Of a stretch of 64,000 nt of DNA, positions 22,005 to 30,132 are shown piece by piece. Each line of letters starts with the position of its first letter. Positions within the stretch are counted from its first letter, which is position 1. The stretch comes from Cyanidioschyzon merolae. Its lineage: Eukaryota. The DNA lies in assembly GCA_000091205.1 (NCBI GenBank), contig AP006490.2. One strand, given 5' to 3'. Below the pieces are notes generated by a model. That model worked only from the letters and a program-made list of their open reading frames with translations. It had not been told where the DNA came from and did not search any database. Position numbers and translations under genes: made by a program.

Positions 22005-22685
22005 TTGGGGGAAGGTGCGTGGGATCGTCGAGACGTTTCGCTGGAAAGCGCCCATTTGGTCTGTATGAGGCGTTTGCGCACTGCTCGTCCGCCCATAACT
22101 CCGCCATGGCTTTCTCCAGTGAATCCTTTGACGCCAGCCTCCAAGCGCGGCCAAGTTAGAACGGGATAGCCTCCTGGTCCAATGGACAGGATTATCGCGG
22201 GACAATGCTCGACTGTCTCCGTGTTGTTCGTTTGCAGGAATGTAGGTGATCGAGGCAGACACCCAGTTGTGCTCGCTCTATTGGAAACAGAGGTTTCGAT
22301 TACGTGCTCGGTTTCGCTCTGTCCAGAGCTGCGAAAGATCCACGACGGCCGCGGCTGCTATGGTGCGTACAGTGTCTGCGATCGTCAGAATACGTAAAAA
22401 TCAGGGTGCGGAAAGATTGCTGGAAACGTTTTCTGGCGTCATAGCGCCTATGAGACCCCTTTTCCCTGGGAGTCGAGCGACAAGCGGTGGCGCGTTCCCT
22501 TGGCTGTCTATCGGACAAGGAAGATAGGTTGAAAGCAAGTCTCGAGCATGACGGTAAAGGGGACGTATATGTTCAAGTGCTCAAGAGCTTTCTCGGCTGT
22601 AAGGCTATAGCACTATTGCCACGTGCACGGTGGACTTTTAGCGGGTAGTGAAAGTAGGTGAAGCGACTTGGCTTCTGACAAAAGG

Positions 22686-22821
22686 TTGCCATCGCGCGGG
22701 ATCGAACCGCGGACCTTTGCATCGCTCGACCGATTGCTGACGATCGTTGCGAGTGCCTTCAGTGCAACGCTTTCGGGCGAGCATCGAATGATGACTCCTC
22801 TCCCTGCTGAGCTACAATGGC
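22686..22821 (-). tRNA. tRNA-Phe(GAA)-like gene carrying intervening sequences: a canonical-position 34-nt intron after anticodon position 37, plus an extra roughly 28-nt insert 5' of the anticodon stem. It may be an unusually spliced tRNA or a pseudogene.
   Basis: The minus-strand read gives acceptor GCCATTG/CGATGGC (7 bp with one G-U), discriminator A and D-arm 'TAGCTCAGCAGGGAGAGG' (Phe-like). The anticodon stem TTGCA/TGCAA carries loop 'CTGAAG...A'. Variable loop is AGGTC and T-arm is CGCGG-TTCGATC-CCGCG. Confidence 0.5.
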
Positions 22822-23351
22822 AACATTCATGTGATATCGATTGCATAAATTGGATATAAAGGCTTGTTGGCGTCCGCTCCCACGCGCAGTTGGACAATCA
22901 TGACTTTAGCGTATATTTATGTATTAAACGGACACACTTCTCTGCATTCCGTTTTGCGGCTCTCCGCATGGGTGTCGATCACGGCTAGGCGAGCCCATTC
23001 CGAGCAACTAGGCGTCAATCGCTGGCGCTGCGACCCACGGACTGATAGGACGCGCTTTAGACAGAATGGCCCATTGTCTTGCTCCTAGCGCGCTGCGTGC
23101 CGCGTCTCCATACGCGTCGGACTCGTCGCGGCAACGTTGCGAAGACCCGTCGCCTCCGCGGCTGTTCGTTTTGTACACGGCAGAGCGGCGACTCGGTCCT
23201 GGACCATGCGCGTGATGCCTGTCGTCGCCCCGCAAAACGGCTGTCTCTCTAAGCGCTACACGTTTGCGCATTGTTTGCGTGTCGGCATGACGCGCAACTG
23301 GCAGAACAGCGCCGTATAGCACTCGCACAGACGCGAGCGTGGACAGAAAAG

Positions 23352-23422
23352 CAGGTACAGGCATAGGTACAGGCATAGGTACAGGCATAGGTACAGGCAT
23401 AGGTACAGGCATAGGTACAGGT
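23352..23422. repeat. 12-bp minisatellite (GTACAGGCATAG)n, about 6 units. The homologous site in the other palindrome arm (about 27105-27125) has about 2 units.
   Basis: 'gtacaggcataggtacaggcatag...' run. It generates the (PMPV)n and (YACT)n artefact ORFs. Confidence 0.9.
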
Positions 23423-23620
23423 GTGGGCTCCAGGTCGGCCCCGGAGAAGGAAGCGTGTGCAAGTACCATGGCGGCTAAAAATCGTTCGCAAAATATCACT
23501 TTATAGGCATCGAGGCTACGCATCAACGCACGGACGATCACTCACTCGCTTTCCATAGGTCGTATCCTTCCTCCATTGCATCCGGTCTTCCTTACATCAA
23601 GGCTTTCACCGCTCTCCGCT

Positions 23621-23914
23621 TTAGTTCCCCTGGAACTTTTCCTTGGTGGCATCTGCTGCGTGCTCTATTCCTTTCTTCGCAGACTGACCGGTTTCCTTCA
23701 GGTGATCCACTGCATCACCCGCCTTGTCTTGAGCTTTCTCCTGTGCGGACTTTTGCCCGGTGAGATCACGGAACTTGTCAGAGATCGTCTCCTTCGCCGA
23801 TGAAAACGCACCAGTGACAGACTCTTTCGCAGAATCCAAAGCGCCACCCGCTTTCTTCTCCGTATCTTTGAGAGCCGACTGTGCTGAGCTTGTATCTTGA
23901 GCTCCGGAAGACAT
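23621..23914 (-). CDS. Small hydrophilic stress-protein-like gene, copy A (97 aa; CsbD/LEA/Con-6-like, K/E/A/Q/G-rich)
   Basis: 'MSSGAQDTSSAQSALKDTEKKAGGALDSAKESVTGAFSSAKETISDKFRDLTGQKSAQEKAQDKAGDAVDHLKETGQSAKKGIEHAADATKEKFQGN*'. The paralog in the other arm has the same length and about 75% aa identity. The listed ORF 23621..24934 is a chance read-through from the upstream element. Confidence 0.6.
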   Translation of the reverse strand: MSSGAQDTSSAQSALKDTEKKAGGALDSAKESVTGAFSSAKETISDKFRDLTGQKSAQEKAQDKAGDAVDHLKETGQSAKKGIEHAADATKEKFQGN

Positions 23915-24040
23915 ATCACAATTTATAATGCTTTCGTAAACTCGAAAAATGCATATGCAAATGAGGTACCACGGCGCGCGCGGTGGCCGCACAGCCACAA
24001 ACACAGGAGATTTTACCGCAACAGGACCCGCACGCACCGC

Positions 24041-25320
24041 AGTTTGAAAGTCGAACGACGGCGGTGTACAGTAGCGGCGAACGATGCGCCCTAGACGACG
24101 TCTCCAACTGAGGTGCAGACGCCTCCCGGCCTTTTTGGACCGGCCACCCGCTACTGCTTCCAACTTTTTCTCAAATAATTCCACTTTGGGAGGTTGTCCA
24201 ATAACGTTCTCTCGTGGCAACTCTGGAGGTCTGCTCTCGAGCACCGCACATGTCGTTATCTTGATAGCGGCGTTAAAGTCTCGGTTCACAAACTCCATAC
24301 GTTCCGTGCCATCATTGGTTGTACTTACTAATGCAAGCAGTCCCCGAACTTTCGCCCTCCTTTCCATTTGCGCTTCCGTCAGCGGTCCGTACTTTGCTAT
24401 TCCCTCAGGGCTGCTCCGACACTTTTCTATCTCGACACTTTGAAGTGTACACCCCAGTTCATGGTGTGTATACGATGTTCGGAACTCATCTATCGATATC
24501 GTAACAAAACGTCGTGCACACTCTATGTACGTTCTCGTCGTTAGAGCTGGTGTACACCTTTTTTGGGTCTTCCAGCGCCCTGATCCGTACGCTACTACCA
24601 GCCTTTGGCTCTCGTCCTCCTTCAGGGCGTTCAACTCATTGAAAAAGTTCGCGAGCACGCGCTGCCTCCCACCGTATAGACTCATTCGCAGACGAGCCCA
24701 CCGGGGCTTTGTATACTCCTCCCGTAGCGCCTCCCGATGAGGAACACGAACTTCCATGACTTTCCGAGAAGCTTGAAAGTGTGCTCCGCGGCCCGTCACC
24801 TCGCTCAAAGCTTCCAGGTGATCCTTCATTCCTGCATCCCATGCAGGAATTTTCTTCCTCGCATTCATGACTCCCGATTCTCGATAGTATCTTGCTCTCG
24901 GGAACCTCAAAAGACGCATGTCTTTCTGACGCAAGGAACCGTCAGTACTATCTTCCGCACGCTACGCTGCGCGATGGTTATGATACTCGTATTCTCAGGG
25001 TCCGCGCCAACGACAAAGCCGTTATCTTGCACTTTCTGCACCGCAGGATCCGCCTCCTTCTCATCTTCATGCTGCACCACGTCAACGACAAAGTCGTTAT
25101 CCTGCACTTTCTGCGTCGCGGTACCCGCCTCCTTCTCATCTTCTTGCTGCGCCACGTCAACGACAAAGTAGTTATCCTGCACTTCCTGTGTGGCAGGATC
25201 CGCCTCTTTGTTTTCTGCATCCTTCGTCACGGGCGGAGCCGAGGGCGGAACTGGCCGATCTGTCTTCAACCGCCGATAGTGTACACACAAGGCTACTCCA
25301 TCGGTTTCGATCATCCCAGT
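24041..25320 (-). mobile_element. TnpB/Fanzor-like element, copy 1. The 3' about 1.3 kb is present; the 5' end is truncated at the palindrome centre. It carries a frameshift shared with copy 3 and has lost its stop codon (TGA to TGT).
   Basis: ORFs 24907..25326 (- '...VGADPENTSIITIA') and 23621..24934 (- 'MRQKDMRLLRF...MEFVNRDFNAAIKITTCAVLE...GRSKKAGRRLHLSWRRRLGRIVRRY'). About 98% identical to the 3' half of the 27.4-30.1 kb copy. Confidence 0.8.
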
Positions 25321-25372
25321 GAACAACTTTTGTTTGCTGACTTTGAGCCGTTCGAAACTGAAGATATTCTTC

Positions 25373-26572
25373 GTTGGGATGATCGAAACCGATGGAGCAG
25401 CCTTGTGTGTACACTATCGGCGGTTTCAGGCGGATCATCCAGCTCCGTCTTCGACTTCGCCGGGACGGAGCATGAAGCGAAGAAAGAGGCGGATCGTGCC
25501 ACGCAGAAAGTGCAGGATAAAGAATTTCCCATTGACGCTACGAAGCATGAAGATGAGATGGAGGCGGATACCGCGACGCAGGAGATGCAGGATAACGACT
25601 TTGTCGTTGGCGCGGACCCTTGGAACACGAATATCATTGGCATGGCTGTACCCAAGCGTGCGGAAGATGGTATCAACGACAGCCCATTTCAGAGAGACAT
25701 GCGTCTGTTGAGATTCTCGAGAGCAAGATACTACCTAGAATTGGGAATCATGAATGCAAGGAAGGAAATTGAGGCATGGAATGCGGAAGTGAAAGAGCAT
25801 CAGGAAGCTTTGAGCGAGGTGACAAGCCGAGGAGCGGGCTTTCAAGCTTTTCTGAAATTCATGGAAGTTCGCATTGCGCACTGGGATGCATTGTGGGAGG
25901 AGTATACAAAGCCCCGGTGGGCTCGTTTGCAAATGAATCTATACGTTGGGAAGCAGCGGGCCTTCGCGAGTTTTTTCAATCAGTTGAGTGCCCTGAAGGA
26001 GGATGAAAATCAGAGGCTCGTAGTAGCGTATAGAGCAGGGCGCTGGGCGCCCAAGAAAGGCACTACGCCAGCTCCAACGACGGGGGCGTACAAGGAGTGC
26101 GCACGGCGTTTCGTCGCGATACCGATAGATGAGTTCCGTTCGTCCTATACACTCCATGAACTGGGGTGTACACTTCAGAGAGTGGAGATGGAAAAGTGCC
26201 AACGGAGCCCTGAGGAAATAGCAAAGTACGGACCTCTGACGGAAGAGCAAATGGAAAGGAGGGCGAAACTTCGGGGGCTACTTGCATTAGTAAGTACAAC
26301 CAGTGATGGCAAGGAACGTATGGAGTTTTTAAACCGAGACTTTAACGTCGCTATCAATTTAAGGAGATGTGCGGTGCTGGAGACGAGACCTCCAGAGCTG
26401 ACAAGAGAGAACTTTGTTGGACAACCGCCCAAAGTAGAACTATATGAGAAAATATGGAATCAGTAGTAGGTGGCCGGTCCAAAAAGGCTGGGAGGCGTCT
26501 GCACGTCAGTGGGAGATGTTTCGTCTAGGGCGCGTGCTTCGCCACTATTGTACACCGTTGGCGTCGTTCGAG
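25373..26572 (+). mobile_element. TnpB/Fanzor-like element, copy 2. The 3' about 1.2 kb is present; this is an older, more diverged subfamily member and is in-frame through the RuvC-I region.
   Basis: ORF 24892..26466 from '[16 protein letters not shown]' onward reads '...DNDFVVGADPWNTNIIGMA...ERMEFLNRDFNVAINLRRCAVLETRPPELTRENFVGQPPKVELYEK'. About 80% aa identity to other copies. The 3' module 'ggtggccggtccaaaaaggctgggaggcgtctgcacgtcag...gtacaccgttggcgtcgttcga' is present. Confidence 0.75.
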
Positions 26573-26605
26573 TGCGAAAGGTGTTCCCTTAGCGTCGCAG
26601 TGACA

Positions 26606-26899
26606 ATGTCTTCTGGGTCGCAGGATACCTCTTCTGGTCAATCAGTTCTCAAAGATGCCGAGGCGAAGGTAGGCAGTGCATGGGAATCCACGAAGGAGTC
26701 AGTTTCTGAAGCGTTCACTTCGGCCAAGGAGACTATCTCTGACAAGTATCGTGATCTCACCGGCCAAAAGTCCGCGCAGGAGAAAGCCCAAGACAAGGCG
26801 AGCGAGGCGGTGGATCACCTAAAGGAAACCGGTCAGTCCGCGAAGGAGAGTTTGCAGCACGCTGCAGATGCAGCCTCGGAAAAGTTAAAGGACGGCTAA
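26606..26899 (+). CDS. Small hydrophilic stress-protein-like gene, copy B (97 aa)
   Basis: 'MSSGSQDTSSGQSVLKDAEAKVGSAWESTKESVSEAFTSAKETISDKYRDLTGQKSAQEKAQDKASEAVDHLKETGQSAKESLQHAADAASEKLKDG*'. Same length as copy A, intact ORF, and it begins about 35 bp after the copy-2 element terminus. Confidence 0.6.
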   Translation: MSSGSQDTSSGQSVLKDAEAKVGSAWESTKESVSEAFTSAKETISDKYRDLTGQKSAQEKAQDKASEAVDHLKETGQSAKESLQHAADAASEKLKDG

Positions 26900-27703
26900 C
26901 GGAGAGAGCGTAGAAAGACTTGAGTGAAGGATGCACGGAAGTAAAACAGGAAGGATACGACCTATGGACAGCGAGTGAGTGATCGTCCGTGCGTTGATGC
27001 GTAGCCTCGATGCCTATAAAGTGATGTTTTGCGAACGATTTTTAGCCGCCATGGTACTTGCACACGCGTCCCGCTCCGGGGCCGACCCGCAGCCCACACC
27101 TGTACCTATGCCTGTACCTGCTTTCCTGTCCACGCCCGCGTCTGTGTGAGTGCTATACGGCGCTGTTCTGCCAGTTGCGCGTCATGCCGACACCCAAACA
27201 ATGCGCAAACGTATAGCGCTTATAGAGAGATAGTTGTTCCGCGGGGCGAGCGCCCGCAATCGCAGTCGAGGGCACAATCGACTCGATCGCTGCCGCACGG
27301 GGCGCGACGCATCGCACGCTGTGGTGCAGCGCAGCGCGTACCGGCCTCTGGAAGCAAGTTGTGCGCAGCAGCGATCTGAGGCCTTTATCCATCGGTGCAG
27401 CGTCTCGCGCGGTGCACGCATCGCGCTCGGTGAGCGTACCCGGGAGATCAGGCAGATATGAGACACGACGCGCATGTCGCCGCTGAAGGGAAACGCGATC
27501 CTGACCATTCGTTGACGTGTTGTTCTAACGTAAAACTTGTATTTGCATTGGAATCGTAACAGAATATATTGTTTCATCTCAGTCGTGTTTCAACCTTCAA
27601 GTAAAAATACTCGAGCGCTTTTTCGCGGTTTAGAGCAGAGACGTTAATAGTGCGTTCTAAATCAAAAAAAAAAAACTAAAAAAGGAAAGTTCTGGACAGC
27701 GAA

Positions 27704-30068
27704 GTGGAGGACCCTGGAGGGTCAGTATCGCTGGCAGGCGAGAAAAAAGGAGCAAAAGAGCCAAACATAGAAGAACGAGACAAGACGAAGAAGCAGACGG
27801 GGGAGGTCCTACGTCAATGGCTGCAAGAAAGACGACAGTACGACGAGATGGAGGTGAAAACCTGTCTTCTCGGCTATAGCAAGGATTCGTAGAAGAAAAA
27901 ATTGCGAGAGTCCATCAGAAACTGTGACGAGTCGGACTCCATGAGTTTTCGTAAGACTTCTTTAGGAATGATGCATCTAGCGAGGGAGATGTATCGCGAC
28001 GTGACGCACATGGAAACAGTCGATGTTCCAGAAAAATTTTGCAACAGGAACTTTATTCTTCACCTGATGCTTGGTACAGGGGAAACATCGAGGAGAAATG
28101 AGCGGGTTCACGCCCTCCACGAAAACTTCGCGGAATTCCGCTTCGAGGGTACTCGGTACAGAGGTGACTCGAATATTTACATATACGGGGCGATGAAGTA
28201 CCTCACGAATCTGAAGAACCATTTGACAGTGAACCTTGAACGTTTCATGAGACGCTCGGTGTTTGCACTCTACCGGGGCATCTCTCGCACAGGAATACGG
28301 GCGATTACCAATGGCATCACCAACGAGCACCAGAATGAAGATGAAGTCGAATTTGTCGACAAGAAGGCGTCAAACGAGCGCACGAATGAAGCCTCTGTAA
28401 TCCGTGCGGTTATACAAGAGCGCCGTGCAATCTTGGGGTTGGCGGATCCAATAGACAAGATACCAGAGTTGAAAAAAAATATAAGGAAAGACACTATCGC
28501 CTCATCCTGCGATATTTCGTGTTTTTGCACCGAGAGCCCGAACGCAGTGCGCAGATGAAGCCGAGTGAGGAAAAAATATGAAGAGTGGGAGAGACGGAAA
28601 GCTTTCCTAATGGGGAAGCGCTTCAACGTCGTTCCAATGTGCAGCATCAAGTCACATTTTGTGACTGTCGACCCAACGTACGTTACAGCAAATTGAAGGA
28701 GATCTGTCCGGAGTTCAATGTAAGGAAGACAGAGTTCGCCGGTGAAAACCGGGAGACGTACTGGAAGAACATCTTCAATTTCAAACGGCTCAAAGTCAGC
28801 AAACAAAAGTTGTTCACTGGGATGATCGAAACCGATGGAGTAGCCTTGTGTGTACACTATCGGCGGTTGAAGACAGATCGGCCAGTTCCGCCCTCGGCTC
28901 CGCCCGTGACGAAGGATGCAGAAAACAAAGAGGCGGATCCTGCCACACAGGAAGTGCAGGATAACGACCTTGTCTTGACGTGGAGCAGCATGAAGATGAG
29001 AAGGAGGCGGATACCGCGACGCAGAAAGTGCAGGATAACGACTTTGTCGTTGACGTGGTGCAGCATGAAGATGAGAAGGAGGCGGATCCTGCGGTGCAGA
29101 AAGTGCAAGATAACGGCTTTGTTGCTGGCGCGGACCCCGGGAATACGAATATCATCACCATCGCAGCACCGAGGCGTGCGGAAGATGGTACTGACGGTTC
29201 CTTGCGTCAGAAAGACATGGGTCTTTTGAGGTTCCGGAGAGCAAGATACTATCGAGAATCGGGAGTCATGAATGCGAGGAAGAAAATTCCTGCATGGGAT
29301 GCAGGAATGAAGGATCACCTGGAAGCTTTGAGCGAGGTGACGGGCCGCGGAGCACACTTTCAAGCTTCTCGGAAAGTCATGGAAGTTCGTGTTCCTCATC
29401 GGGAGGCGCTACGGGAGGAGTATACAAAGCCCCGGTGGGCTCGTCTGCGAATGAGTCTATACGGTGGGAGGCAGCGCGTGCTCGCGAACTTTTTCAATGA
29501 GTTGAACGCCCTGAAGGAGGACGAGAGCCAAAGGCTGGTAGTAGCGTACGGATCAGGGCGCTGGAAGACCCAAAAAAGGTGTACACCAGCTCTAACGACG
29601 AGAACGTACATAGAGTGTGCACGACGTTTTGTTACGATATCGATAGATGAGTTCCGAACATCGTATACACACCATGAACTGGGGTGTACACTTCAAAGTG
29701 TCGAGATAGAAAAGTGCCAGAGCAGCCCTGAGGGAATAGCAAAGTACGGACCGCTGACGGAAGCGCAAATGGAAAGGAGGGCGAAAGTTCGGGGACTGCT
29801 TGCATTAGTAAGTACAACCAATGATGGCACGGAACGTATGGAGTTTGTGAACCGAGACTTTAACGCCGCTATCAAGATAACGACATGTGCGGTGCTCGAG
29901 AGCAGACCTCCAGAGTTGCCACGAGAGAACGTTATTGGACAACCTCCCAAAGTGGAGTTATTTGAGAAAAAGTTGGAGGCAGTAGCGGGTGGCCGGTCCA
30001 AAAAGGCCGGGAGGCGTCTGCACCTCAGTTGGAGACGTCGTCTAGGGCGCATCGTTCGCCGCTACTGA
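27704..30068 (+). pseudogene. TnpB/Fanzor-like RuvC-family protein gene, disrupted (in-frame stop SKDS*; about 1-bp deletions near 28667 and 28960; a possible 100-nt GT..AG intron at 28530-28629)
   Basis: Reconstructed order: N-terminal '...MYRDVTHMETVDVPEKF...' is followed by a WED-like '...[36 protein letters not shown]'. An acidic 25-aa repeat of about three units precedes 'GADPGNT' (RuvC-I D). Next come '...LVVAYGSGRW' (RuvC-II position, Glu apparently replaced), a degenerate Zn-ribbon 'TSYTHHELGC...C', then 'NRDFNAAIKI' (RuvC-III D). Compare the TnpB consensus RDxNAAxNIxRRG. Confidence 0.7.
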
Positions 30069-30075
30069 ACCACTG
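29930..30075 (+). ncRNA. Candidate omegaRNA-like conserved 3'-terminal module, overlapping the ORF's last about 45 codons and ending at the element terminus
   Basis: A single string is conserved in all copies and in both solo fragments: 'ggtggccggtccaaaaaggccgggaggcgtctgcacctcagttggagacgtcgtctagggcgcatcgttcgccgctactg(tacaccgccgtcgttcgacttt)'. Short hairpins are visible: GGCC...GGCC, GAGG...CCTC, CGTCT...AGACG. By analogy, the TnpB/Fanzor guide RNA scaffold is encoded at the 3' end of the ORF and the right end. Confidence 0.3.
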
Positions 30076-30132
30076 GCGGCAGCGTTTTTCTTTTGAAAAG
30101 CGTTTGCTGCTCGGGGTGCTAGCGTTCCTGAA

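Follow-up and report, generated by a model that had tools for sequence, protein, structure and literature searches.

Crenarchaeal tRNA genes can carry multiple introns, ectopic introns set in bulge-helix-bulge (BHB) motifs and an upstream TATA-like box. The disrupted tRNA genes of Cyanidioschyzon merolae have become the textbook case of ectopic, archaeal-like tRNA introns in the nucleus of a eukaryote and are relevant to the evolution of the tRNA-splicing endonuclease. Soma et al. (2013; Sci Rep 3:2321, PMC3728597) report introns in 27 of 43 nuclear tRNA genes in C. merolae, many of which are ectopic or occur several to a gene, and tRNA-Phe(GAA) serves as their example of a gene with two introns (their Fig. 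3B). Intron 1 is placed there in the D-stem and classed as hBHBh', with a free energy of -11.1 kcal/mol, and intron 2 lies at 37/38 with a 'no H' motif and a free energy of +1.15 kcal/mol. Mature tRNA-Phe was seen by these authors on a northern blot, and RT-PCR followed by sequencing detected the full precursor, the intermediate without intron 1 and the mature tRNA. Among the products described there, an intermediate lacking only intron 2 was never detected, indicating that intron 1 is removed first. [quoted passage not shown] Its inventory gives one gene per nuclear tRNA, with Gly(CCC) as the sole exception, and a 2026 review still puts the number of nuclear tRNA genes at 43. In the later literature that we checked, nothing specific to C. 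merolae tRNA-Phe has been added since 2013.

Our analysis concerns a window of 64,000 nucleotides (the whole stretch of DNA under study), and the locus described here is the two-intron C. merolae tRNA-Phe(GAA) gene already known from Soma et al. (2013). As read from the sequence, the gene occupies minus-strand positions 22821..22687 and is 135 nt long, ending at the discriminator A73 (Table 1). An earlier note on this DNA had set its length at 136 nt, which counts one extra A, base 22686. Every canonical tRNA-Phe element named in that note was found, in order, on the minus strand: the acceptor strand GCCATTG, which pairs with CGATGGC; TAGCTCAGCAGGGAGAG; the anticodon stem TTGCA and TGCAA with the loop CTGAAG..A; the variable loop AGGTC; the T-arm CGCGG-TTCGATC-CCGCG; and the 3' acceptor strand CGATGGC. 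With the inserts written as [...], the 5' half of the locus reads GCCATTG-TA-GCTC-AGCAGGGA-GAG[...]CG-TTGCA-CTGAAG[...]A, and the 3' half reads TGCAA-AGGTC-CGCGG-TTCGATC-CCGCG-CGATGGC-A.

Table 1. Parts of the tRNA-Phe(GAA) gene and sequence elements in its flanks (positions in the window).
Feature	Position	Strand	Description
Exon 1, 22 nt	22800..22821	-	acceptor 5' strand, U8 A9, D-stem 5' strand, D-loop, G22
Intron 1, 28 nt	22772..22799	-	3' strand of D-stem; coordinates for the 22/23 cut
Exon 2, 15 nt	22757..22771	-	A23 G24 C25 G26, anticodon stem 5' strand, loop 32-37 with GAA
Intron 2, 34 nt	22723..22756	-	canonical 37/38 position
Exon 3, 36 nt	22687..22722	-	A38, anticodon stem 3' strand, AGGTC, T-arm, acceptor 3' strand, A73
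TATA-like TTTATAT	22854..22860	-	-39 to -33 from the mature 5' end; found by sequence
Second AT-rich element TTTATG	22844-22849	-	-28 to -23
TTTT run	22680..22683	-	starts 4 nt after the discriminator; read from sequence

Removal of the 28-nt and 34-nt segments in silico left 73 nt that ARAGORN folded into a perfect cloverleaf and called tRNA-Phe(GAA). Its stems measure 7, 4, 5 and 5 bp, all 21 pairs are formed (one of them G.U), the 7-nt anticodon loop carries GAA at positions 34-36, and the variable loop has 5 nt. The mature junctions produced in this way are CAGGGAG-AGCGTTGCA (GGGAG/AGCG, equivalently GAG/CG, with the slash at the junction) and CTGAAG-ATGCAA. The conserved U8, A14, G18, G19, G20, A21 and U33, the T-loop TTCGATC and A73 are all present in the spliced product. 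The identity bases G20, G34, A35, A36 and A73 could be read directly from the sequence; they are the same five that Sampson and colleagues are said to have defined in 1989 as the identity set of yeast PheRS. At 29 of 31 non-stem positions the spliced product equals ordinary eukaryotic tRNA-Phe (reference genes among the matches listed), and this agreement, combined with perfectly paired stems of its own, excludes a chance resemblance. CCA is absent from the gene-encoded 3' end.

The 34-nt insert had been assigned by the earlier note to the canonical intron site, and both the junction geometry and the published junction primer agree with the 37/38 position. For the second insert, the proposed length of roughly 28 nt was right and the proposed site, between the D-arm and the anticodon stem, was not: the segment lies outside the canonical site and interrupts the 3' strand of the D-stem, between 22/23 and 24/25, and by the ARAGORN fold its removal is required for the D-stem to be restored. 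Self-splicing group I or group II introns, which span hundreds of nucleotides around a conserved catalytic core, were ruled out, as the inserts have only 28 and 34 nt and no Rfam intron family matches them at E<=1.

The published primers tie this locus to the gene of Soma et al. (2013). Primer F5'-1 matches the window once, at 22800-22821, and is identical to exon 1; F5'-2 likewise has one match (22796-22821), as does F3'-1 (22687-22703), the reverse complement of which is the 3' end of the gene. For the junction primer F3'-2 there is no match in the genomic sequence; it matches only the RNA spliced in silico, across TGAAG/ATGCAA. Because the genomic primers match uniquely and the junction primer fits the spliced RNA only, the locus can be equated with the published tRNA-Phe gene. 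The window belongs to the nuclear genome of C. merolae 10D: three proteins encoded in it are residue-for-residue identical to C. merolae 10D BAM79767, BAM79773 and BAM79775, which come from a chromosome of 739,753 bp. The GC content of the window is about 55%. Given the one-gene-per-tRNA inventory in the account of PMC3728597, there would be no canonical tRNA-Phe gene elsewhere to substitute, and by that inventory the locus is most likely the only nuclear tRNA-Phe(GAA) gene.

ARAGORN, which the earlier note had suggested running, gave a divided answer. In default mode on the window it reported no tRNA at 22687-22821, and in intron mode it took the locus, still unspliced, for a tRNA-Arg(TCG) gene that has a 57-nt anticodon-loop intron, a miscall; the correct call came from the spliced sequence. 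When intron 1 alone had been removed, ARAGORN -i moved the 34-nt intron by one base and called Val(GAC), a register that we rejected because the 37/38 cut suits the junction geometry and matches the published junction primer F3'-2. Rfam yielded no tRNA match at the locus, either at the gathering threshold or at E<=1. The tRNA-Phe gene is thus readable from the sequence although ARAGORN and Rfam both miss this multi-intron locus, and the literature on an organism should be compared before novelty is claimed for any multi-intron tRNA locus in it.

Three registers of intron 1 (22/23, 23/24 and 24/25) yield the identical spliced product, with ends that shift by 1 or 2 nt. Only in the 22/23 register does each cut follow the second base of a 3-nt bulge, with the two bulges flanking a GGG/CCC helix. 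The outer helix h then consists of 2 bp (G15-C53 and C16-G52), the central helix H of three Watson-Crick pairs (G18-C47, G19-C46 and G20-C45) and an A.G mismatch (A17.G48), the bulges are AG/A and AA/A, and the inner h' hairpin pairs GAG with CTC and CATC with GATG. We evaluated the energy of this fold at -9.7 kcal/mol, compared with the published -11.1 kcal/mol, for which the segment and parameters may differ. Since H has an A.G in place of the fourth pair and h has only 2 bp, the published hBHBh' label is reproduced only loosely. In a brute-force scan, 15 of 5495 irrelevant cut pairs also gave BHB-like arrangements that passed a similar filter; the geometry of intron 1 is weakly discriminating and serves as supporting, not decisive, evidence. 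The modelled intron 1 would form a BHB-like fold that fits the 22/23 cut, the sequence alone leaving three registers.

The best strict-register BHB-like arrangement anywhere in the precursor was a different one, in which part of intron 1 (pre-tRNA positions 33-41) pairs with the end of intron 2 (92-103). Its cuts fall after pre-tRNA positions 41 and 97, H and h have 4 bp each, and the excision would delete the anticodon. This cross-pairing between the introns is probably a chance complementarity.

Intron 2 looks like a normal, relaxed eukaryotic 37/38 junction. Its central helix has two of four pairs only (C32-G and U33-A), which corresponds to the published 'no H' class, with C32 pairing the third-from-last intron base (-3), and a 3-nt bulge, CG/A, lies at the 3' splice site. 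The reference set for this comparison came from a metagenome pattern scan for tRNA-Phe with an insert after the D-stem GAG. Among the matches listed, it comprised 39 ordinary eukaryotic tRNA-Phe 37/38 introns; the pattern of two pairs in four was the commonest in them, and the full four-pair central helix occurred in none. At least 42 matches of the scan passed a cloverleaf screen, and all of those listed were ordinary tRNA-Phe genes, either with a 37/38 intron or intronless. The scan pattern had caught a second CTGAAG, made up of the 3' anticodon stem and the variable loop; for this reason the matches listed are uninformative on D-stem introns in other lineages.

Relatives of the locus were retrieved via the neighbouring MutT-like gene, which gave about 19 environmental contigs that contain it at 97-100% identity. 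Variable sites numbered 0 of 73 in the exons versus 10 of 187 in the introns and flanks (hypergeometric P = 0.035), a modest statistic, and relatives that are all at least 97% identical are too close for covariation of the BHB. Two of the substitutions concern the introns: in intron 1, A49C affects the first base of the 3' bulge, and in the intron 2 hairpin a G.U becomes an A-U pair through G92A. The invariance of the exons next to varying introns and flanks in these close relatives is consistent with a functional, spliced gene. That the exon bases are all fixed in environmental populations, and that both intron substitutions can be accommodated in the proposed folds, is a minor addition to what was known of this gene.

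In two contigs the match to the window breaks off close to where intron 1 has its 3' end (about 22770-22782). L008:1900-2295 continues there into unrelated sequence. In L137:1836-2147, exon 2, intron 2, exon 3 and the downstream flank are repeated, the repeat measuring 183 nt (window 22587-22769) and being joined at a GAAAGC microhomology, with different strain SNPs in the two copies. Both departures probably stem from faulty assembly; if the tandem duplication in L137 were real, it would be relevant to how permuted tRNA genes arose.

The relatives also cover the flanking elements. TTTATAT is kept in all those that extend over it, and by analogy with the upstream sequence named for most C. merolae tRNA genes it may act as the promoter of tRNA-Phe; the A-box region of the gene is interrupted by intron 1. 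The downstream TTTT run is invariant and is a probable RNA polymerase III terminator.

Directly beside the tRNA gene, window positions 23200-30100 hold a complex of inverted and direct repeats. Segments 24066-24970 and 29166-30070 are 99% identical over 905 nt, and 24166-24929 and 25689-26452 are 83% identical. An ORF family occurs there in three copies, at 23621-24934 (-), 24892-26466 (+) and 28980-30068 (+), for which we found neither a Pfam domain nor a related sequence in the PDB. Probably the region represents a repeated or mobile element, of a type left unassigned by the Pfam and PDB searches. A TnpB/Fanzor identity of the ORF family, considered for a likeness of 'IDEFRTSYTHHELGC' / 'IDEFRTS' to the RuvC motifs of those proteins, gained no support from Pfam or PDB sequences. 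The minus-strand copy, a 437-aa ORF, was also considered as cmSen34 (CMH233C, 435 aa) and rejected, as it has no Pfam endonuclease domain and is part of the repeated element, and no Sen34 was found among the other ORFs of the window.

Further features accompany these repeats. The ORF at 26444-26899 (+) and the C-terminal part of 23621-24934 (-) are inverted copies of a small K/E/A/S-rich repeat protein, LEA-like or apolipoprotein-like by weak Pfam matches only, and each copy lies within the repeat arms. A near-perfect hairpin of about 136 nt at 25277-25416 scored 56 bits against Rfam MIR4227 on both strands (gathering score 100). It is not credible as a miRNA and corresponds to the middle of the palindrome within the repeat element, where the inverted repeat is 25232-25326 / 25367-25461. 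Also inside the element, positions 25002-25231 contain a 75-nt unit three times in tandem, the later copies matching the first at 76-86% identity. A 177-aa ORF at 23008-23541 (-), situated between the tRNA gene and the repeats, has a (PMPV)x6 repeat and is likely to be non-coding low-complexity sequence.

The earlier note had left the choice between a lineage that processes noncanonical tRNA introns and a disrupted pseudogene or tRNA-derived element. The second possibility, which would make the locus a dead tRNA copy or a SINE-like tRNA-derived repeat with no functional tRNA, could draw on the silence of the standard tools and on the adjoining repeat-rich region at 23.2-30.1 kb. The repeats, however, begin past 23.2 kb and lie clear of the tRNA, which has one copy only within the window. 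Excision of both inserts gives a flawless cloverleaf in which the conserved tertiary and identity bases are all kept, and the exons are invariant in environmental relatives while flanks and introns vary. Moreover, the account of PMC3728597 documents the mature product by northern blot and RT-PCR with primers that map only here within the window. We therefore consider a pseudogene or tRNA-derived repeat extremely improbable, and the first possibility stands: C. merolae makes mature tRNA-Phe from this gene. A gene of the archaeal multi-intron type found in Thermoproteales, in an archaeal genome, would share with the locus its multiple introns, the ectopic BHB-like D-stem intron and the upstream TATA-like box, features in which the genes described in PMC3728597 resemble crenarchaeal ones. 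This origin is refuted by the neighbouring genes, which encode a ubiquitin-specific protease, mitochondrial carriers, 60S ribosomal protein L5 and DNA polymerase alpha/epsilon subunit B, and by the exact C. merolae 10D protein matches in the window (BAM79767, BAM79773 and BAM79775); the mature sequence, too, is of the eukaryotic tRNA-Phe type.

We have very little doubt that the locus is the nuclear tRNA-Phe(GAA) gene of C. merolae 10D, expressed as one precursor from which intron 1 is cut first via a BHB and intron 2 thereafter in eukaryotic style. In the proposed pathway, a single precursor of about 135 nt would be transcribed from the upstream TATA-like promoter to the downstream T-run. Intron 1 and its flanking exon bases would fold into an archaeal-style BHB and be cut first, presumably by the tRNA-splicing endonuclease. 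After ligation of this junction, the D-arm and the mature tRNA body would be able to form, and intron 2, with its relaxed junction, would be cut next in the ordinary body-dependent way of eukaryotes. Ligation and CCA addition would then give the 73-nt (+CCA) tRNA-Phe. The order of the two removals is a published experimental result; its cause would lie in the stability of the motif or in dependence on a folded body.

These two causes lead to different views of the enzyme. One possibility, to which we give somewhat less than even odds, is that a single endonuclease works in two modes, recognising intron 1 by a position-independent BHB and intron 2 by a body-dependent ruler once the D-arm has folded; the 2013 authors already raised it in their discussion of these genes (PMC3728597). 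If it is true, tRNA splicing in C. merolae would be a living intermediate between the archaeal and the eukaryotic kind, with an enzyme that possibly works without Sen15. It seems rather unlikely that both introns are instead recognised by one body-independent BHB mechanism, the order being set by motif stability only. The published order does track the BHB free energies (-11.1 versus +1.15 kcal/mol), and this is one of the two explanations offered in PMC3728597. Intron 2, however, has no complete central helix, so that a purely BHB-driven enzyme would find little to recognise in it. Its junction resembles ordinary eukaryotic 37/38 junctions, which according to the same source are cut by a ruler mechanism in yeast, and in each of the three C. 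merolae tRNAs examined there the anticodon-arm motif was the last to be processed.

Compared with the tRNA-Phe gene of Soma et al. (2013), nothing substantive differs. The locus is the same, and the organism, the number and positions of the introns and the spliced junction all agree; the intron 1 motif is rated slightly imperfect here, against their hBHBh' label. With ordinary eukaryotic tRNA-Phe genes, such as that of yeast pre-tRNA-Phe, the locus shares the 37/38 site, the pairing of C32 at -3, the 3-nt bulge at the 3' site and a highly similar mature sequence. Unlike them, it has an extra intron in the D-stem, which interrupts the A box. Its intron 2 also lacks a TTC complementary to the anticodon, which is present in 34 of the 39 reference introns (among the matches listed), and contains in its place a TCAG complementary to positions 32-35.

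The multi-intron tRNA genes of Crenarchaeota (Thermoproteales) have in common with this gene an ectopic stem intron, a BHB-like fold at the junction and more than one intron per gene. In C. merolae, by contrast, the gene resides in a eukaryotic nucleus, its mature tRNA belongs to the eukaryotic type and its 37/38 intron has no BHB; in the genes described in PMC3728597 the introns are not nested, and the endonuclease components reported there are homologues of Sen2, Sen34 and Sen54, with no Sen15 found. The same genome also contains circularly permuted tRNA genes (Soma et al. 2007), which share with tRNA-Phe the BHB-like motifs, the splicing endonuclease, and the TATA-like promoter and T-stretch. 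Unlike theirs, the exons of tRNA-Phe are colinear, and no circular intermediate is therefore required.
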